Origin: a virus
Lineage: Duplodnaviria > Heunggongvirae > Uroviricota > Caudoviricetes
Virus record (IMG/VR): IMGVR_UViG_2713896902_000006
DNA length: 34,781 nucleotides
Reading direction: 5' to 3' (one strand)
Below are positions 8,125 to 33,707 of this stretch, one piece after another (positions within the stretch are counted from its first letter, which is position 1; each line of letters opens with the position of its first letter). A model generated the notes under the pieces. It searched no databases and was not told the DNA's origin. It saw only the letters and a list, made by a program, of their open reading frames with translations. Made by a program: the position numbers and the translations under genes.

Positions 8125-8345
8125 GACGCCTCCTTAAGGATACCGGGGGTAACTTCTTTACCTATTGCAACCGATAGATCTCGCAAAATCCGATAAGTCA
8201 AACGACCGCGAGGTAGTTCACTTTTACCAGCCCAGCGACTGACTGCCTGGGTGACTGTTCGTGGTTCATAGCCCGCGTTAAGCGCGAACTGGCGCAAGCT
8301 ACTGCCTCGTTCAACCAGCCGTGCCCGAACTTGTTGTTTGTTCAT
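8121..8345 (-). CDS. ner: Ner-like DNA-binding protein (Nlp/Ner family)
   Basis: About 74 aa; HTH-like LRQFALNAGYEPRTVTQAVSRW; first gene of the early operon, divergent from the repressor; ATG 8345 preferred over GTG 8351. Confidence 0.6.
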   Translation of the reverse strand: MNKQQVRARLVERGSSLRQFALNAGYEPRTVTQAVSRWAGKSELPRGRLTYRILRDLSVAIGKEVTPGILKEAS

Positions 8346-8433
8346 ATGCACCGTGTTCCTGTTAGGTTATGATGTACTCTATTGGGTCTATTGTACACAC
8401 CCAAATGAGTGTGTCAAATTGAGATATGTTCAA
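8346..8433. promoter_or_regulatory. divergent early promoter/operator region between ner-like and repressor genes
   Basis: 88-bp AT-rich spacer between divergent starts; direct repeat CAAATGAGT at 8402..8410 and 8431..8439 (second copy overlaps the repressor ATG). Confidence 0.4.
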
Positions 8434-8841
8434 ATGAGTACAAAAGAGAGATTGCGTGAAGTGATGGATGCTAATGGCATGACAATAAAGGCATTATCTG
8501 ACTTATCAAAAATTCCATATCGCTCACTTCAAAACTATTTGCGTGGAGAGAGAGAACCAAACGCAGAGGCTCTTGTTGCGCTAAGTACCCATTTGGGTGT
8601 ATCGATCGATTGGCTACTTACCGGTAAAGAACATATTCCATCTAAAGAAATTGTTGCTGTACCAACACAACATCAATTCAGCCCGTCAGACCTTAAAATG
8701 CTTGAACTTCTAAACCAGTTAGATCCTGAGGTTCGGCGAGATCTCATGCGAGGCGCTGAAGAAAAACAGCGTGTGATTGAGATGGAAAAACAACTGAAGG
8801 AATTATCCGCAACGATTGAGCGGTTAAAAAATGTGGGTTAA
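8434..8841 (+). CDS. phage repressor, XRE-family HTH
   Basis: 135 aa from ATG 8434; HTH TIKALSDLSKIPYRSLQNYLRGEREP...LVALSTHLGVSIDWLL; divergent from the early operon; AT-rich codon usage. Confidence 0.7.
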   Translation: MSTKERLREVMDANGMTIKALSDLSKIPYRSLQNYLRGEREPNAEALVALSTHLGVSIDWLLTGKEHIPSKEIVAVPTQHQFSPSDLKMLELLNQLDPEVRRDLMRGAEEKQRVIEMEKQLKELSATIERLKNVG

Positions 8842-8911
8842 TGTGTTCCTAACGAGAACATATAGCAGAAATTATTTGCCATTAAGCAATAAAAAATAAG
8901 GTGGATAGCCA

Positions 8912-9919
8912 ATGTCTGAGCAGACCATTGAAGTTAAACACGTTGTAGTTCACATTTTAGACAAACAACAAAATGGAGACGCTTCTGAGAGATTGAGTCC
9001 TGAAGAAGGTCTAGTTACTGAAGCCTCTCAGCGCCTTATAAACGATATTTGTGCAAAATATGCAGGACGCACAGGTAAAGGTTATGGCTATTTTGAAGGC
9101 GATACGGATAACTATCCTATGGAACGAATGGCTGGGGACTTTCTCGAAGGTGTTGATGATTTCTACCAAAGTTCCTGCCGAATGATGCATCACCTGACGG
9201 AACGTTCTCAGCGAGAAAACATGGCTACTGGTGGTTATGTTCTTTTTGCAAATATCGTGATAGGACACAATGAACACCTGTTGATAGCTATTGTAAGCGC
9301 TACCATTGGGTCCACTGTCACAGATGATTTTAACATCCAAGATAGTACCTACCTTGATATTGCTAAGCTGCGTATGGCTGGGCGCATTGACTTAACCGCG
9401 TGGGAAAGTGGCGCAGAGCGCTATATCAGTTTTCTTAAGGGGCAAGGTAATGTTTCAAACTATTTTAAACAGTTCCTCGGCTGTAATGATGTCTTAATCG
9501 CCAAACGAGAGTCTGAAAAGTTACGTGACGTTTTAAAAGCATTTGCGGCAGAGAAAGGACTTGACGGCGCTGAAAAAGATGCATTTCTTAAGAGTGCGTT
9601 TGAACACTTACATGCACTAAGTAAGGCTGGTGAACCACTTAGTCTTGAAACCCTTGTTAATGCCATTTGGCCCCAGGCTCCCGAGGAGTTATCTGGTAAA
9701 CTTGCTGCTGAAGAGTTGGAGTTATCGGATGGCTTCGTTCCTGATGGTCGAGTCATTCGGGCTCTGGTATCTTTTAAAGGCAAGTCTAAATATTGGGAAC
9801 TTAAGTTTGACCGGGAAGGGAAAACTGAAGGCTATATTGATTATGATCCGGAAACAAATATTATCACCCTACGTAATGTACCTGAAGAATTTAGGGAAAT
9901 GTGGATGACTGAGGTTTAA
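8912..9919 (+). CDS. YejK/NdpA-family nucleoid-associated protein paralogue
   Basis: 335 aa, the same length as E. coli YejK; shared blocks recalled from YejK: GG(Y/F)VLF, YLDI, (G/A)RIDLT.WE, RY(I/L).FLKG, and a C-terminal block ending DP.T..(I/L)T(L/I). AAGGTGG RBS. Confidence 0.7.
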   Translation: MSEQTIEVKHVVVHILDKQQNGDASERLSPEEGLVTEASQRLINDICAKYAGRTGKGYGYFEGDTDNYPMERMAGDFLEGVDDFYQSSCRMMHHLTERSQRENMATGGYVLFANIVIGHNEHLLIAIVSATIGSTVTDDFNIQDSTYLDIAKLRMAGRIDLTAWESGAERYISFLKGQGNVSNYFKQFLGCNDVLIAKRESEKLRDVLKAFAAEKGLDGAEKDAFLKSAFEHLHALSKAGEPLSLETLVNAIWPQAPEELSGKLAAEELELSDGFVPDGRVIRALVSFKGKSKYWELKFDREGKTEGYIDYDPETNIITLRNVPEEFREMWMTEV

Positions 9920-9921
9920 TC

Positions 9922-11127
9922 GTGGCGATTTCATTTGAGATGCTGACAGCTCTGTATCGTCGTATGGAATTCCAAGAGGGGTTTCGTGTCGGTTCGCTGT
10001 TGCTCTTAGATCAGTCCGATTGTGATCTGGTTGATACTTTGCTTGATGATCCTCGTGAATATGGTCTTTCTATTGATACAGGCACTATCGCTCCAGGTAA
10101 CACGATCATCCTACGTGTGACGTCACCACGGAGTGGACTGGGACTTGTGTTTTCCACCCATGAAAAATTGCTAAATGCTCCAAAGCATCAGTGCCTTGAG
10201 CCAGCTAATTACTTCATCCTAGAAACAAAATTTCGTAATGATGATGAAGATATCCCCGTTTTCATCAGCAACTACCGGAAGATTCTCGAGTTCGTTAACC
10301 TGCTAAAAGAGGCCGCGGCCTACTTTGATAACTCAACTTGTCAGTTAGTTTTTCTGAAAAAAGAAGTTATCAAGCTATTACCGCACTTCGCTGCAGAAAA
10401 TGTACAAAATTTGCAAAGGGAGTATCTTGATAACCTTATAGCTTGTTTCAATGATGATACCCATAAGGATCAGAAGCTAGATATTCTGATTGAAAGTATC
10501 CAAGCAGTTAGTGATGGAATTGATTCACCTCTAGTATTCGCTTATTTACTGGACAATATTCAGCGTCTGCATGAAAAGTTTCTGAAAGGGTATCGTATCT
10601 ACTCTTCTGGATTCTCTTATGACAAAGTAATGGATCAACTGCGTGCTGCAAAAGTCGAAGAAATGGGTAAAATCCACAAAGCGTTTTCAGATATCCAGAA
10701 CCATATACTTGGCATTCCTGTTGCCTCTGTTATCGTAGCTACCCAATTCAAAGTGGCTACGAAATGGTCAGGCCAAGGGATAACAAACACAATAATTCTT
10801 CTGGGATGCATTTTTGCTGCAACGTTAATCTGGCTGGCACTTTCGAACCAGATGCAATCTATAAAGGCCTTAGGCGAAGAAATTGAATACAAAGAAAAAC
10901 AGATTAATAAGGAATATTCCTTCATTAAAGATGACGTGGCTGGTGTATTTAGCAGTATTTCTGCGCGACTAGACACGCAGAAACGTACGTTCTGGATTAT
11001 ACGTGGTGTTCTAGTTATGGGAATTATTACCGCTATCACTGTTTATTTTTGGTACACAAAACCAGCCCTTGACTTCATGCAGTACTTGATTCACTGCATG
11101 AAGTCTTACTATTCGGTCAAAAGTTGA
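9922..11127 (+). CDS. hypothetical protein with two C-terminal transmembrane helices (partner of the NdpA-like gene)
   Basis: GTG start 2 nt after the upstream stop with GAGG RBS; 401 aa; hydrophobic segments ITNTIILLGCIFAATLIWLALS and FWIIRGVLVMGIITAITVYFWY near the C-terminus; very AT-rich. Confidence 0.6.
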   Translation: MAISFEMLTALYRRMEFQEGFRVGSLLLLDQSDCDLVDTLLDDPREYGLSIDTGTIAPGNTIILRVTSPRSGLGLVFSTHEKLLNAPKHQCLEPANYFILETKFRNDDEDIPVFISNYRKILEFVNLLKEAAAYFDNSTCQLVFLKKEVIKLLPHFAAENVQNLQREYLDNLIACFNDDTHKDQKLDILIESIQAVSDGIDSPLVFAYLLDNIQRLHEKFLKGYRIYSSGFSYDKVMDQLRAAKVEEMGKIHKAFSDIQNHILGIPVASVIVATQFKVATKWSGQGITNTIILLGCIFAATLIWLALSNQMQSIKALGEEIEYKEKQINKEYSFIKDDVAGVFSSISARLDTQKRTFWIIRGVLVMGIITAITVYFWYTKPALDFMQYLIHCMKSYYSVKS

Positions 11128-11887
11128 GGATAATGAGTTCCTTCTTGCGACTGGATTTGCCAGTGATCTTGAGGTTGTAGCTGATATCAACCGACTGAAT
11201 ATTTAGACCGTTGAATGCCTGCCGCATTTCCGGGATATCGTTCACCGATATAATCATATTCCCTTTGATCCTGCGTGCTAAATCTGCCATATGATCATAA
11301 TTTTCTAGTCCGAACTCCACACCATAACCTTCCGTTCCCCAGTATGGAGGGTCACAGTAGAACAACGTATGCGGGCGATCATATCGTTCTATGCACTGTT
11401 GCCAGTCCATGTGTTCTATGACCGTTCTGGAAAGCCGCAGGTGTGCCGCTGACAGTTCATCTTCAATACGCAGCAGGTTGAAGCGTGGCGGGGATATGGT
11501 GGAGGTACCAAAGCTGTGCTCCGCCACCTTGCCTCCAAACGCCTGCTTCTGAAGGTAGTAGAACCGTGCTGCACGCTGGATATCCGTCAGTGTTTCTTCC
11601 GGGGTGATCTGCAGCCATTTGTAGATCTGCCGGCTGACCAGCGCCCATTTGAACTGGCGTACAAATTCTTCCAGATGATGTTTTACCACCCGATACAGGT
11701 TCACCAGCTCACCGTTGATATCATTAATGACTTCGATCTTGCCGGGTACCTTAAGAAAATAGAGCGCTGCTGCCCCACAAAACGGCTCCACATAACATTC
11801 ATGCGCCGGAAACAGCGGCAGGATGTGTTTTGCAAGGCGGCGTTTGCCACCAATCCATGGAACGATGGGTAATGTCTGCATTTTCAT
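11117..11887 (-). CDS. dam: DNA N6-adenine methyltransferase, Dam-like (orphan)
   Basis: DPPYW catalytic motif and EPFCGAAA SAM-binding-like motif; 256 aa; no adjacent restriction endonuclease; 3' end overlaps the convergent cassette gene by 11 bp. Confidence 0.8.
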   Translation of the reverse strand: MKMQTLPIVPWIGGKRRLAKHILPLFPAHECYVEPFCGAAALYFLKVPGKIEVINDINGELVNLYRVVKHHLEEFVRQFKWALVSRQIYKWLQITPEETLTDIQRAARFYYLQKQAFGGKVAEHSFGTSTISPPRFNLLRIEDELSAAHLRLSRTVIEHMDWQQCIERYDRPHTLFYCDPPYWGTEGYGVEFGLENYDHMADLARRIKGNMIISVNDIPEMRQAFNGLNIQSVDISYNLKITGKSSRKKELIILNF

Positions 11888-29586: not shown

Positions 29587-30728
29587 ACAGTACTGCGCAA
29601 GCCACATCAGCGTTAACCGGCGTCAGCGATGTGCTGACGCCGGTATTCACTCTGTGGTATCTGCAGAAAAACATCACCTCTGATATCGCGCCTTATGTCA
29701 CCCGTGTGGTCTGGAGCGATAACATCAAAAATGAGTCCGATACCATTGAGGTGGAGCTGGACGACACCGATGGCCGCTGGCTGGATAAGTGGTATCCGGG
29801 CAAGGGTGACACGCTGACGCTGAAAATGGGTTATCAGGGCGAGAAACTGCTGTCCTGCGGTACATTCTCAATAGACGAGATCGAAGTGAGTTCGCCCGCG
29901 TCCGTTGTCGCTATCCGTGGGGTGGCTACCTCGGTTAACAGTGCTCTGCGGACTAAATCCAGCCGTGGTTTTGAGAACACCACGCTGGCAGCTGTTGCGG
30001 GGCGGATTGCCAGAAAGCACCGGCTGAAACTGGTGGGCAGCATTGAGTCCATCAGAATCGACCGGGTGACCCAGTATGCTGAAACCGACGTGGGTTTTCT
30101 GCGCCGGCTGGCCAGCGAGTATGGTTATGCAGTGAAAGTGGTCAGTGACCAGCTGATTTTTTCTCATCTGGCCACACTTCGCAGTCAGGAGCCGGTCAGG
30201 CAGTTAAAACCGCAGGATGTGGCCTGCTTTTCCCTGCGTGACACCATCAACCGGGTCTATAAATCTGCAAAGGTAAAACACCAGAAAAGCAGCAGTAAAA
30301 AACTGATCGTCTACGAAGCTGATGGTGGTACCCGTGAAAGCGACAAAAAGCTCAAAGGCGGTAAGGTTACCAGCGCTGACTCACTTAAAGTTAACAGCCG
30401 CGTCAGCGACCCGGACAGTGCCCGGATTAAAGCGGATTCAGCACTGGCCAAACATAACGAATACCAGCAGAACGGCTCCCTGACGCTGACGGGAACGCCT
30501 CAACTGACAGCAGGCAACAAAATTGAACTGGTGGGCTTTGGACAGTTATCCGGTCCATGGCTGATAATCACTGCCCGCCATGCGTTTGAGCGTAACAGCG
30601 GCTACACCACAGAGCTGGAAGTGGCACGGGGGCCAGTCACAAGAGGGAAAAAACAAAAAACTCAGAAACTCACGGTTTATCACCCGGATGGCAGTACATC
30701 GACGGTGATTAAGGAGAAGAAAAAATGA
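29574..30728 (+). CDS. tail protein D (P2 gpD-like)
   Basis: 384 aa, matching the gpD size class; position U-X-D. Confidence 0.7.
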   Translation: MAEINSTAQATSALTGVSDVLTPVFTLWYLQKNITSDIAPYVTRVVWSDNIKNESDTIEVELDDTDGRWLDKWYPGKGDTLTLKMGYQGEKLLSCGTFSIDEIEVSSPASVVAIRGVATSVNSALRTKSSRGFENTTLAAVAGRIARKHRLKLVGSIESIRIDRVTQYAETDVGFLRRLASEYGYAVKVVSDQLIFSHLATLRSQEPVRQLKPQDVACFSLRDTINRVYKSAKVKHQKSSSKKLIVYEADGGTRESDKKLKGGKVTSADSLKVNSRVSDPDSARIKADSALAKHNEYQQNGSLTLTGTPQLTAGNKIELVGFGQLSGPWLIITARHAFERNSGYTTELEVARGPVTRGKKQKTQKLTVYHPDGSTSTVIKEKKK

Positions 30729-31237
30729 CTGGTGTCACCCGTCAGGTCGGTACGGTCAGTGCCGTTGATGCCGACAGGGTTCAGGCCCGCGTTCGTCTGC
30801 CTGAATGCGATAATCTGCGCACAAACTGGCTTAACGTGCTACAGCGCAATACCCAGGATAACAAGGATTACTGGCTCCCTGACGTGGGGGAGCAGGTTGA
30901 GGTGCTGCTCGATGCCAACGGCGAGGATGGTGTTATTCTGGGCGCGGTGTACTCAGACGTCGATAAACCGCCGTTCAGTGATAAAAACGTCCGGGGCACG
31001 AAGTACGCTGATGGCGCGGAGTTCAGTTATGACCGCGCGACCCATACGCTGACGGTCAAAGGAGGTATCGAGCATGTGGTGATCGAGGTTGCAGTGGGTA
31101 TTAGTCTGAAAGGGAAAACCATTGATTTGACAGCTGACACTATCATGGTGAACGGCAATCTTGAAATCAAAGGGAGTACCCATGCGACTGGTAACATATT
31201 TGCAGATGGACAGAATTCCAATCATCACTCTCACTAA
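30725..31237 (+). CDS. baseplate assembly protein V (spike, P2 gpV-like)
   Basis: 170 aa; conserved block WLPDVGEQVEVL comparable to the P2 gpV region; ATGA overlap with the D-like gene. Confidence 0.7.
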   Translation: MTGVTRQVGTVSAVDADRVQARVRLPECDNLRTNWLNVLQRNTQDNKDYWLPDVGEQVEVLLDANGEDGVILGAVYSDVDKPPFSDKNVRGTKYADGAEFSYDRATHTLTVKGGIEHVVIEVAVGISLKGKTIDLTADTIMVNGNLEIKGSTHATGNIFADGQNSNHHSH

Positions 31238-31318
31238 TTTTTCAAGTATGTGACTCCATTTCCTCTCCCGCGGATATGATAGAATTTTTTAATTAACACT
31301 AATTTGGCGGGGACTTAA

Positions 31319-32194
31319 ATGCGGTTATCAAGATCCTTATGTAAAGTAGTTGGCGATGTCATTGCTAACTCAGGCTCTCATGCAGCTTTAGATACGTTAT
31401 TTCTTACTTCGGGAGCACCAGGAAACCCTCCGGCAGGATCTCATAGTACAAAATGGAAAGACTGGTTATTTCTTGCAGGGCAAGATCCAGATACAGATAG
31501 TCTGGCAGTTCTGGGCGGAGTAATTGAGGAGTTTATGGATTTACCTCCAAAAGAAGGTACTCCCGAATATGCAGAATGGAAGGAAAAACGAGACAGAATT
31601 GAAGCTGTGTTACAAGAGAATGGACTTAGATATTATCGTTTTGGTCGAGTGTTGCCTGAAGGCCACATCCCGTCACACAATATGGATTACCCAGAGACCA
31701 TAATTACTTATCAACAGCCAGTAATGCCAGAAAAAGTTGAGAACTTACTGGAAAGGCTGGTCAAAGGCTTACAGCGAGCAATGCATCCACTTACTCATAG
31801 GCGAAAAGGAAGCCAGTCATTATCTTTTAGCAATGAATATGACGTGCAAGACCTTCTCCATGCATTGCTCAGACCATGGGTTCAGGACATCCGCCCAGAA
31901 GAGTTTACTCCAAGTTACGCTGGTTCAAGTACTCGAATGGATTTTTTGTTACCTGCGCATAAATTAGTACTGGAAACCAAAATTGTTCGTGATCGTTCTC
32001 ATGCAAAGAAAATCGGCGATGAACTTATTATCGATATAGAGCATTATCGTCAGCACTCTGATTGCAAAAATCTCTGGTGTGTCATCTACGATCCGAACCA
32101 GTTTATTACTAATTCTGAGGGGCTGAAATCTGATCTTGAGGGGAAGAGAGTTTCTAAAGACGGAGAACTTATCGTCAAGGTTTTCGTAATTTAA
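31319..32194 (+). CDS. AT-rich moron ORF; protein with C-terminal PD-(D/E)xK-like nuclease motif pattern, function unknown
   Basis: 291 aa; inserted between V and W, which are adjacent in P2; flanked by 81-bp and 71-bp AT-rich non-coding spacers; C-terminal E (NEYDVQDLL), D (RMDFLL), ExK (VLETKIV) pattern. Confidence 0.6.
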   Translation: MRLSRSLCKVVGDVIANSGSHAALDTLFLTSGAPGNPPAGSHSTKWKDWLFLAGQDPDTDSLAVLGGVIEEFMDLPPKEGTPEYAEWKEKRDRIEAVLQENGLRYYRFGRVLPEGHIPSHNMDYPETIITYQQPVMPEKVENLLERLVKGLQRAMHPLTHRRKGSQSLSFSNEYDVQDLLHALLRPWVQDIRPEEFTPSYAGSSTRMDFLLPAHKLVLETKIVRDRSHAKKIGDELIIDIEHYRQHSDCKNLWCVIYDPNQFITNSEGLKSDLEGKRVSKDGELIVKVFVI

Positions 32195-32265
32195 CAAACG
32201 TATCAATAACTCCTTTTTAAATCCCTTTAATATCGTTCTTTTCTTACTGGGGCAATACTGCCCCC

Positions 32266-32613
32266 ATGAAAACGACCTCAGTATTCTGGCAACCGGCTCT
32301 GCAGGCTCCCGGCGAAATCGTCCGGGGGCTGGATGATATCCAGCAGTCCATCCAGATCATCCTGCGGACTCCCCGCGGCAGCGACCCGCATCGCCCAGAG
32401 TTCGGCAGCAATCTGCACCTTTATATCGACTGGCCTGTCGACCGGGCCATTCCGCATGTGGTTCGCGAATCCGTCGATGCCATCAGGCGCTGGGAACCCC
32501 GCTGCCAGCTTATGTCGGTTAAACCCGCCGTCGACGGCGAACATCTTACGCTCCGGGTGAGCTGGAAAGGCTCAGACGGACAACCCCGTACTCAGGAACT
32601 GCTATGGCGCTGA
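32266..32613 (+). CDS. baseplate assembly protein W (P2 gpW-like)
   Basis: 115 aa; ILRTPRGS and WEPR blocks as in gpW-type proteins; followed by an overlapping J-like gene. Confidence 0.75.
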   Translation: MKTTSVFWQPALQAPGEIVRGLDDIQQSIQIILRTPRGSDPHRPEFGSNLHLYIDWPVDRAIPHVVRESVDAIRRWEPRCQLMSVKPAVDGEHLTLRVSWKGSDGQPRTQELLWR

Positions 32614-33707
32614 CAGAACCCGATTTTATTGAACTCGATGCCGATAAAATCACGGCAGAAATGATTGCGAAATATGAAGCGGATACCGGCAAAACGTTGT
32701 ACCCGGCACAGGCAGAACGTCTGCTGATAGATCTGTGGGCCTATCGCGAAATGCTGGTCAGGGTGGCGGTACAGGAGGCGGCGAAGCTGAATCTGGTCGC
32801 CTTTTCCCGGGAGCCGATGATTGATTACCTCGGAGAACTGGTTGGTGTATACCGCCTTCCCGCGCAGCCTGCCACCACCACACTTCAGTTCTCTGTGGAT
32901 GAGGCACTGGCCATTGATGTGCTGATCCCGGCAGGCACCCGCGTCAGCGCTTCCGACAGCGTGATTTTTGCCACCGATACAGATGTAGTGCTGAAGGCCG
33001 GTTTGCAACTGGTCAATGCCCCTGCCACCTGTACTGAGCCGGGTACCTCTGGCAACGGCTGGCAACCGGCTCAGGTCAGTCAGCTGCTTGATGAGATTGA
33101 TAACGTTGACCTGCTGGTGACCAATCTGACGGCCAGCACTGGCGGTTCAGAGCAGGAAGACAATGACCGACTCCGGGAGCGTATCAGGCTGGCCCCGGAG
33201 TCATTCACCAATGCCGGAAGCCGTGGTGCATACCGTTTTCATGCCATGGGGGCGCATCCCAGTATTGTCGACGTCGCTGTTCTTTCTCCCGTTCCCGGTA
33301 CTGTCGAGCTGTATCCACTGCTCAGCACTGGTCTGCCAGACAGCAGTATCCTCACTCTGGTAGAGAGTTTCTGTTCTGACGAAAAAGTCAGACCACTCAC
33401 TGATACCGTGCGGGCTAAAACACCTGTTCAGGTGGATTACACCATTGAAGCCAGGATTACGATCTATCGTGATCAGGATGCAATGTCGGTAAAGGACAAC
33501 GCTAACAGCGCCATACAGAACTGGGTGGCATCACGTGCCGCCACGCTGGGACGCGATATTGTCCCCAGCCAGATTATCAGTGCATTGTCCGTTTCCGGGG
33601 TGTACCAGGTTGAACTGGTGACACCGGCACTGCGGGTGGTTGCAGAAAACGAATGGGCAAACTGTACGGCAATCACTCTTAACGTGACAGGGGTGTCCGA
33701 TGGCTGA
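32604..33707 (+). CDS. baseplate assembly protein J (P2 gpJ-like)
   Basis: 367 aa; position W-J-I; start overlaps the gpW stop. Confidence 0.75.
   Translation: MALTEPDFIELDADKITAEMIAKYEADTGKTLYPAQAERLLIDLWAYREMLVRVAVQEAAKLNLVAFSREPMIDYLGELVGVYRLPAQPATTTLQFSVDEALAIDVLIPAGTRVSASDSVIFATDTDVVLKAGLQLVNAPATCTEPGTSGNGWQPAQVSQLLDEIDNVDLLVTNLTASTGGSEQEDNDRLRERIRLAPESFTNAGSRGAYRFHAMGAHPSIVDVAVLSPVPGTVELYPLLSTGLPDSSILTLVESFCSDEKVRPLTDTVRAKTPVQVDYTIEARITIYRDQDAMSVKDNANSAIQNWVASRAATLGRDIVPSQIISALSVSGVYQVELVTPALRVVAENEWANCTAITLNVTGVSDG

Follow-up and report, generated by a model that had tools for sequence, protein, structure and literature searches.

Why should a temperate phage carry, between two of its baseplate genes, a single gene that reads as a nuclease? 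The question is raised by IMG/VR virus record IMGVR_UViG_2713896902_000006, 34,781 nucleotides of caudoviral DNA that were analysed here as one window and in which an AT-rich segment of 973 bp separates the baseplate genes V and W and holds one open reading frame (ORF) of 291 aa. An earlier reading made from the DNA letters (the sequence-only reading) had taken the segment for an inserted moron encoding a PD-(D/E)xK-like protein, possibly a defence or abortive-infection (Abi) cargo of a P2-type tail cluster. We interpret the segment as an accessory module of one gene that a BcepMu-like temperate phage acquired horizontally, and we hold it reasonably likely that the encoded protein, a candidate stand-alone nuclease combining a sensor with a DNase, acts in abortive infection or another form of defence.

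Comparison with related prophages confirmed that the segment is a real insertion and that it is polymorphic among them. A megablast search with positions 30725-32613 against 5,426 complete Escherichia coli genomes found the V-W region in 636 of these. The entire query was present in 12 of the 636 records, in one of them (strain B7A) split by the insertion sequence (IS) IS2, and six further records held parts of it at an identity of at least 99.7% with the gene interrupted by IS100 and/or IS2. The remaining records, about 600, have V and W adjacent with a gap of 54 bp, and these empty sites bear out the proposed insertion and show that the insert is variable. In a sample of 60 records drawn down the ranking of matches, 58 cover just 915-999 bp with no annotated gene besides V and W, and the junction was therefore rejected as a general hotspot for cargo. 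Neither is the insert present in any of three related phage records (KP12, PhiKM and Phi06_2974 B). Alignment with an empty site (L002) places the left border immediately 3' of the stop codon of V (31238) and the right border at about 32210. The sequence-only reading had counted 81 bp upstream and 71 bp downstream of the ORF as the segment's own non-coding flanks; both are non-coding, but the last 55 bp downstream are the native spacer and lie outside the insert. Its estimate of AT-richness agrees with the computed GC content, 0.37-0.44 over 31050-32250 vs 0.52-0.61 in the tail genes on both sides. Around the insert Pfam recognises D (Phage_GPD), V (Phage_base_V), W (GPW_gp25) and J (Baseplate_J), and E. 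coli records with 99.7% identity label V as 'phage baseplate assembly protein V'. At its ends the 973-bp segment has neither notable inverted or direct repeats nor the features of an IS.

The same V-W slot is occupied in Yersinia, with a nuclease 90% identical, and in Pectobacterium, where the nuclease is 77% identical; there the gene has been retained at the junction in prophages whose flanking proteins are just 54-74% identical. Between the E. coli and Yersinia copies the nucleotide identity is 82% in the ORF and 77-91% in the flanks. Insert and flanks are thus equally diverged, and therefore the moron is old in the phage lineage and no recent invader. Pectobacterium colocasium CSR2 carries three nuclease-bearing copies of a Mu-like prophage on one chromosome (L022, L023, L024), each with the gene between V and W. 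As a separate observation, V of the window aligns to the Yersinia prophage over its first 362 nt alone, the C-terminal third being replaced (31087-31237 vs L016 5680-5920), and it is 170 aa long vs 198-200 aa in Yersinia, PhiKM and ST131-type prophages; this replaced 3' third therefore indicates a recombination breakpoint adjoining the insertion site.

On its sequence profile, the C-terminal half of the protein is a PD-(D/E)xK nuclease domain with an intact catalytic E...D...ExK signature. Residues 143-286 match PF18742 (REase_DpnII-MboI) at E=3.1e-47, with 160.3 bits against a cut-off of 27 and over positions 2-147 of 150 in the model, and a Pfam scan of the 291-aa protein at E<=1 returned nothing beyond this family. 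The motifs singled out earlier are present as NEYDVQDLL (E173), RMDFLL (D208) and VLETKIV (E219, K221). These four residues, and also D175 and D178, are invariant in 33 homologues, and the four are at least 97% conserved among 64 full-length sequences from many phyla. When a profile of the 33 homologues was compared with solved structures, one was found, EcbAgaN (PDB 23wq, E=3.1e-7), with RMDFLLP...LVLETK aligned against RIDLYLP...IIEVK and D208/E219/K221 against D298/E309/K311. The nuclease call of the sequence-only reading is upheld by the family match, the conserved residues and this alignment. In PADLOC the REase part of the Aga_Helical-REase models alone was matched (E=1.7e-30), and the PADLOC and PDB matches cover just residues 136-274; the single match in PHROGs is to a family of unknown function. 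EcbAgaN has two domains joined by an unstructured linker, degrades single- and double-stranded DNA non-specifically, also cuts Dam-methylated E. coli DNA and is inactivated by D298A or E309A/K311A (PMC10620215). Once activated by its Argonaute it kills the cell and mediates Abi (Song et al. 2023, PMC10620215). In Detocs, too, PF18742 can take the place of the effector (Rousset et al. 2023, bioRxiv 10.1101/2023.01.24.525353).

The N-terminal domain, a putative sensor or regulatory module, bears on what the nuclease might be for. With a diverse alignment, AlphaFold2 (AF2) modelled it as five helices and a beta-hairpin at a mean predicted local distance difference test (pLDDT) of 93.3 and a predicted template modelling score (pTM) of 0.85. 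It belongs to no Pfam family at E<=10 for any of 35 members, and no PDB chain matches its profile. A search of residues 1-142 against 1.84 billion cluster representatives found the domain in 324 clusters. Among the 150 best-scoring of these 324 representatives, 79 of which are fragments, it is fused to an Abi_C/AbiJ HEPN domain in 36, to a PF18742 REase in 13, to a TIR domain in about six and to PNP_UDP_1 in three. The TIR partners are of the TIR_2 or CAP12/Pycsar type and the PNP partner is Cap17-like, and in the HEPN, TIR and PNP fusions the domain is likewise N-terminal. It is therefore common to four classes of suicide effector (AbiJ-type HEPN, TIR, CAP12-type TIR and Cap17-like PNP), which supports an Abi function, and homologues of it on plasmids carry the annotation 'abortive infection family protein'. 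H21, P34, K45, W49, G66 and the loop motif GAPGDPP are among its conserved positions. A few proteins bear extra N-terminal pieces, namely AbiJ_NTD3, an Hsp70 fragment or Zn-ribbon-like CxxC pairs, the CxxC...CxxC extensions occurring in P0177 and P0128. Across 64 full-length sequences the mean pairwise identity is 63% for the whole protein, 61% for this domain, 19% for the linker and 71% for the REase. The domain fits the description of AbiJ-NTD5, with which it was compared by description only, in being about 100-115 aa long and mostly helical, in its AbiJ HEPN and TIR fusions and in the Zn ribbon on some members. The N-terminal domains of AbiJ proteins have been proposed to bind viral targets and to restrain the toxin domain, and thus to serve as sensors or antitoxins (Anantharaman et al. 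2013, PMC3710099).

The genomic contexts point in the same direction. A word-indexed protein search returned 3,379 relatives of the 291-aa protein, the best 120 all full-length, and identity within the family is 47-90% overall across many phyla. From one genome per species (185,579 species), 85 loci with 51-78% identity were collected; they come from Gamma-, Beta-, Alpha- and Deltaproteobacteria, Acidobacteriota, Planctomycetota, Verrucomicrobiota, Cyanobacteria, Chloroflexota, Bacteroidota and others. Clustering of all ORFs within 4 kb revealed no conserved partner gene in the 85 loci, and the top recurrent neighbour families, an IS3 transposase and an integrase among them, occur in just 3-5 of these. 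The gene was found in three prophage types and in integrase islands, with most family members outside prophages, in islands. A Salmonella homologue sits in an integrase island beside TIR and DUF4365-TPR genes, and others lie in a satellite-like integrase island of E. coli and a tmRNA-site integrase island of Dickeya, where the genes downstream of the nuclease are unrelated to each other. On a lambda-like viral contig (L106 7293-8792) a homologue is placed between the terminase and the portal together with a 500-aa Schlafen/AlbA_2 protein, a conflict-associated domain, and on a P1-like contig one adjoins ddrB/darA. Pseudomonas aeruginosa carries an identical four-gene block at two different chromosomal sites (L005 and L007, 5516-9304 each), consisting of a 234-aa unknown protein, a 483-aa trypsin-like protease, the nuclease and a 104-aa unknown protein. 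The mobile, defence-like surroundings and the lack of a conserved neighbour in the 85 loci speak for a stand-alone defence gene. The defence or Abi role that had been suggested for the moron is strongly suggested by the sharing of the N-terminal domain and by these contexts. In addition, full-length homologues (62-63%) were seen on 2.3-2.7-kb contigs (L049, L050) binned as Nanoarchaeota and Methanobacteriota metagenome-assembled genomes, which could reflect mis-binning or genuine transfer between domains of life.

How such a protein might protect a lysogen can be outlined as follows. The lysogen would transcribe the nuclease gene from its own extended -10 promoter, and the N-terminal domain would hold the DNase inactive until an infection cue is perceived, either a phage product or a conserved cellular component altered by infection. 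The DNase would then degrade DNA without sequence specificity, as its relative EcbAgaN does, and would stop the superinfecting phage by sacrificing the cell or destroying the DNA of the invader. The hexamers TATGAT and TAGAAT noted earlier upstream of the gene are present at 31275-31285, and the second lies within a TGnTAGAAT element. In an alignment of the upstream regions from E. coli, Yersinia, IMG/VR and Pectobacterium, representing three genera, this element is invariant while adjoining positions diverge. No terminator was found anywhere in 30700-32700. Because no terminator separates the gene from V and W, the nuclease must be read through in the prophage's own late transcription, and therefore the phage must not trigger the nuclease or must tolerate it. 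It seems that the gene is probably transcribed alone in the lysogen and, by read-through, late in infection, as inferred from these signals. Rfam and Tandem Repeats Finder returned no ncRNA family and no tandem repeats in 30900-32500, and there is thus no sign of an RNA antitoxin of the type III toxin-antitoxin kind. The coordinates of these and the other features are collected in Table 1.

Table 1. Features of the V-W insert, its flanks and the second AT-rich block, in positions of the window
Feature	Position	Strand	Basis
Baseplate spike gene V (Mu gp45-like), left flank	30725..31237	+	Pfam Phage_base_V
Inserted AT-rich segment (moron), 973 bp	31238..32210	+	Missing from empty sites L002 and L004
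Predicted extended -10 element TGaTAGAAT	31277..31285	+	Invariant columns T53 G54. T56-T61
Shine-Dalgarno-like GGGGA, 5 nt before ATG	31309..31313	+	GGAC core kept in all four upstream regions
ORF, 291 aa	31319..32194	+	Sole ORF of inserted segment
N-terminal domain, residues 1-115, putative sensor/regulatory module	31319..31663	+	AF2, homologue search
Variable, disordered linker, residues 116-139	31664..31735	+	pLDDT <50 for residues 116-133
PD-(D/E)xK nuclease domain (PF18742), residues 140-291 and stop codon	31736..32194	+	Pfam E=3.1e-47
Catalytic codons E173, D208, E219, K221	31835-31837, 31940-31942, 31973-31975, 31979-31981	+	
Native V-W intergenic spacer, kept 3' of insert	32211..32265	+	Alignment to empty and all occupied sites
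Baseplate wedge gene W (gp25-like), right flank	32266..32613	+	Pfam GPW_gp25
CI-like helix-turn-helix protein	8338-8841	+	In second AT-rich block
NA37/YejK-like nucleoid-associated protein	8912-9919	+	In second AT-rich block
401-aa unknown protein, weak KwaA match	9922-11127	+	In second AT-rich block
Dam-family D12 adenine methyltransferase	11117-11887	-	In second AT-rich block

Several observations weigh against a sensor-plus-DNase defence protein. An identity of 61% in the N-terminal domain across phyla is unusual for a sensor of fast-evolving phage proteins. In about 7 of the 18 E. coli carrier records the nuclease gene is disrupted by IS2 or IS100, and the gene could thus be costly or dispensable; alternatively, the disrupted copies may represent one clonal, IS-rich lineage of enterotoxigenic E. 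coli (ETEC). In ETEC B7A (L109 1095-3306) IS2 interrupts the gene after about residue 239, and E. coli 503025 (L108 4095-8030) and its relatives have an additional IS100 after about residue 145. On the structural side, AF2 gave a mediocre model for the nuclease half, and a Foldseek comparison of the full-length model with the PDB yielded no significant match, the best resemblances, non-significant, being to Shedu (8ti9_C, E=0.12) and Can2 nuclease domains. The whole-protein model has a pLDDT of 73.5, and the order H174-184, E204-211, E216-223, H229-244, E251-257 fits an alpha-beta-beta-beta-alpha-beta core at a pLDDT of just 58-87 in the nuclease half. Structure prediction, proposed earlier as a check on the fold, is thus only weakly informative for the nuclease half, and the fold assignment rests on sequence profiles. 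The promoter of the nuclease gene is likewise a prediction: a scan for two-hexamer -35/-10 promoters found no canonical one upstream of the gene, and the claim that the gene has its own promoter is carried by the conserved extended -10 element. Finally, NCBIfam holds no match or model for the protein, and PADLOC-DB 2023 contains no system matching it. Nor is the protein described in the accessible literature.

The design can be compared with several known systems. In Shedu (SduA, DUF4263), a defence nuclease of the PD-(D/E)xK type encoded by a single gene, the N-terminal sensing domain varies. Its logic appears to be the same, an N-terminal regulatory domain followed by a C-terminal PD-(D/E)xK nuclease, but it belongs to another nuclease family and no PADLOC or Pfam match to Shedu/DUF4263 was obtained here. 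AbiJ-like proteins likewise join a non-catalytic N-terminal domain and a toxic C-terminal nuclease in a single chain, stand alone and are found on mobile elements, and the N-terminal domain studied here is homologous (E 1e-10 to 1e-20) to that of many Abi_C/AbiJ-HEPN proteins. They differ in the effector, which is a HEPN RNase there and a PD-(D/E)xK DNase here; the Abi_C HEPN domain, which has the motif R-x(4-6)-H, was not matched in the 291-aa protein (Pfam E<=1), and neither was the PADLOC AbiJ model, which does not match the shared N-terminal domain in Abi_C-fused relatives either. Taranis of a Vibrio cholerae integron is a possible AbiJ-like relative, compared by description only; it is experimentally active and combines Abi_C with an N-terminus 'distantly related to AbiJ_NTD5' (bioRxiv 10.1101/2024.07.02.601686). 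The bAgaN proteins (EcbAgaN, BPAN) are built alike: their N-terminal part is helical, their linker is unstructured, and their C-terminal REase belongs to the same family and has an aligned D...E-x-K. In contrast, their N-terminal halves are unrelated to the one here and they are activated in trans by an adjacent guide-loaded long-B prokaryotic Argonaute (pAgo), whereas no pAgo or conserved neighbour is found here (the flanks being V and W) or in the 85 loci. The PF18742 variants of Detocs use the same Pfam effector domain as their cell-killing output; there a phospho-receiver domain is attached to the effector, which depends on the genes for the kinase DtcA and the buffer DtcB. No Response_reg match was obtained in the protein and no DtcA/DtcB-type neighbours were found at the locus or in the 85 loci. 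Tha (Rostol et al. 2024, PMC11087260) is a HEPN defence that a prophage encodes and tail proteins activate. As is proposed for the protein here, it is an Abi effector carried by a prophage whose own late proteins must not set it off. The two proteins are unrelated, however, Tha having a HEPN effector and a host that is Gram-positive, and no anti-toxin partner was identified for the present protein. As no conserved methyltransferase is linked to the gene in the 85 loci, membership in restriction-modification (R-M) systems finds no support. The protein thus falls outside AbiJ for want of a HEPN domain, outside BPAN for want of a pAgo, outside Detocs for want of a receiver or kinase, and outside R-M for want of a methylase. 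It probably represents not a new principle but the AbiJ-like single-protein logic with the HEPN RNase swapped for the DNase of the bAgaN and Detocs variants.

If the protein is protective, it would be a compact (291 aa) single-gene anti-phage system missed by current catalogues, as PADLOC has no system for it, NCBIfam has no model and the name in NCBI is often 'transposase'. Its sensor or regulatory domain would serve DNase, RNase, NADase-type and ATP-nucleosidase effectors alike, and identifying the cue for this domain would explain at least four effector families at once; being strongly conserved across phyla, it is a tractable model. A further implication would be that cargo of this kind can be stably maintained in the late structural operons of Mu-like phages, and one may ask how self-triggering is avoided.

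A different account of the N-terminal domain starts from its fold. Death-fold domains (DD, CARD, PYD, DED) are the commonest single fold class in the top 40 matches for its model, and Foldseek of the same model against the PDB found no death fold (best E=1.4), so the resemblance, which concerns a predicted model, is a lead and not a finding. The domain might be an unrecognised bacterial death-fold (CARD/DD-like) module fused in single-gene form to four classes of suicide effector, the PF18742 DNase, AbiJ HEPN, TIR and PNP ATP-nucleosidase. It would respond to a cue by homotypic oligomerisation, and its conservation, which spans more than 10 phyla, would be explained by the sensing of a conserved signal, cellular or nucleic-acid, and not of a phage protein. 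The known bacterial death-like and CARD domains act in multi-gene systems with NLR-like ATPases and proteases. A homotypic partner with the same domain, be it a sensor NTPase or a protease, was not found at the locus, nor is there a conserved neighbour in the 85 loci. We give this account a modest chance, and consider it doubtful as it stands.

The position of the gene lends itself to another explanation, in which the nuclease serves the phage's lytic cycle or is a late-expressed weapon for superinfection exclusion or against competitors, and would degrade competitor or host DNA or counteract host defence, with no Abi sensing in the lysogen. The gene stands inside the late tail operon, on the same strand and without a terminator on either side, and is thus co-transcribed with V and W; it has been kept at the junction in diverged prophages, and the P1-like homologue adjoins the anti-restriction genes ddrB and darA. 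However, about 97% of related E. coli prophages are without the gene, and growth therefore does not require it. Phages of the Mu type replicate by transposing into the DNA of the host and would themselves be harmed by a free DNase. Furthermore, the majority of the family resides in islands outside prophages, and the other partners of the N-terminal domain (HEPN, TIR and PNP) are host-killing effectors. A lytic role is in our view unlikely.

The protein could also be the effector arm of a distributed system, its N-terminal domain being a death-fold or EAD-type adaptor and a sensor with the same domain being encoded elsewhere. This appears quite unlikely, given the Foldseek outcome for the N-domain model and the absence of a copy of the domain linked to an NTPase or sensor among the 150 best representatives, in addition to the missing conserved neighbour. 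The P. aeruginosa block, where a protease and the 234-aa protein adjoin the nuclease, was searched for the domain, which is present in neither. Moreover, a moron dependent on a host-encoded partner would fail after transfer between genera.

Could the gene instead be selfish? A single nuclease gene with its own predicted promoter, polymorphic in presence and set between conserved phage genes, resembles a free-standing homing endonuclease that invaded the V-W spacer by cutting the empty allele. The divergence of the insert, which equals that of its flanks in the comparison with Yersinia, and the nuclease being more alike than the flanking proteins in Pectobacterium argue for old co-inheritance and not recent invasion. 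Outside these prophages the gene occupies unrelated sites, its N-terminal domain is common to toxins that do not cut DNA (TIR, PNP, HEPN), and EcbAgaN, the nearest characterised relative, is non-specific. Homing is accordingly very unlikely.

The Pfam family name refers to DpnII/MboI, and a Dam-family D12 methyltransferase is encoded in the same window, which together suggest a solitary DpnII/MboI-like type II enzyme protected by GATC methylation, whether by the Dam of the host or by the prophage enzyme (11117-11887). This is highly improbable. Pairing with the prophage methyltransferase, 20 kb away, was rejected, as it is common in nuclease-negative prophages and missing from a nuclease-positive one: about 535 E. 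coli genomes encode the methyltransferase and nearly all of them lack the nuclease, all 19 genomes with the whole methyltransferase cassette are nuclease-negative, and the nuclease-positive prophage of strain JNEC-KY202 has no methyltransferase. The 85 loci, many from phyla not known for Dam, contain no methyltransferase among conserved neighbours; Pfam at E<=1 gives PF18742 alone and NCBIfam no match to named restriction enzymes, and EcbAgaN cuts even Dam-methylated DNA non-specifically. The name transposase, given to the protein in many NCBI source records, is almost certainly wrong, since neither Pfam nor NCBIfam finds a transposase domain, the 973-bp segment has no terminal inverted repeats or target duplication, and the three Pectobacterium copies are three copies of a whole Mu-like prophage.

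The element carrying the defence-nuclease candidate is a BcepMu-like transposable prophage with a P2-type baseplate module. The P2-type label in the sequence-only reading fits this module, but the phage itself is not a P2 phage. In JNEC-KY202, whose locus is 99.7% identical, the prophage lies inside the pdu operon and encodes a DDE transposase with an ExeA-type B protein, Gam, Mor, a DUF935 portal, and MuF-like and Mu G-like proteins; a Gin-like invertase adjoins invertible tail-fibre genes, and the early operon runs opposite to the late operon. The portal, MuF, Mor, Gam, transposase/B pair, invertase and pdu insertion led to the rejection of a P2 identity, and the related phage PhiKM is classified as Bcepmuvirus.

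A second AT-rich accessory block (8338-11887, GC 0.39-0.45) is situated between the immunity region and the lysis genes, with the four genes listed in Table 1. The complete cassette was present in 19 complete E. coli genomes, with the nuclease insert in 0 of the 19, and JNEC-KY202 has other genes at this position (DUF2441 and two hypotheticals); the block looks like the real variable hotspot of this prophage family. The NA37/methyltransferase cassette and the nuclease insert occur together in 0 of the 5,426 complete E. coli genomes. Each has matches of 99.6-99.8%, but in separate strains, which points to a mosaic prophage. In the native spacer after the insert, a hairpin at 32243-32258, GGGGCAATACTGCCCC (GGGGCA-ATAC-UGCCCC), forms a perfect 6-bp stem ending 7 nt before the start codon of W. 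Its RNA fold has -14.2 kcal/mol and z=-2.67; no T-run follows, and it is not a terminator. V-W junctions keep the hairpin whether they are occupied or empty, as does the distant Pectobacterium prophage, and it may control the translation of W or mRNA stability.

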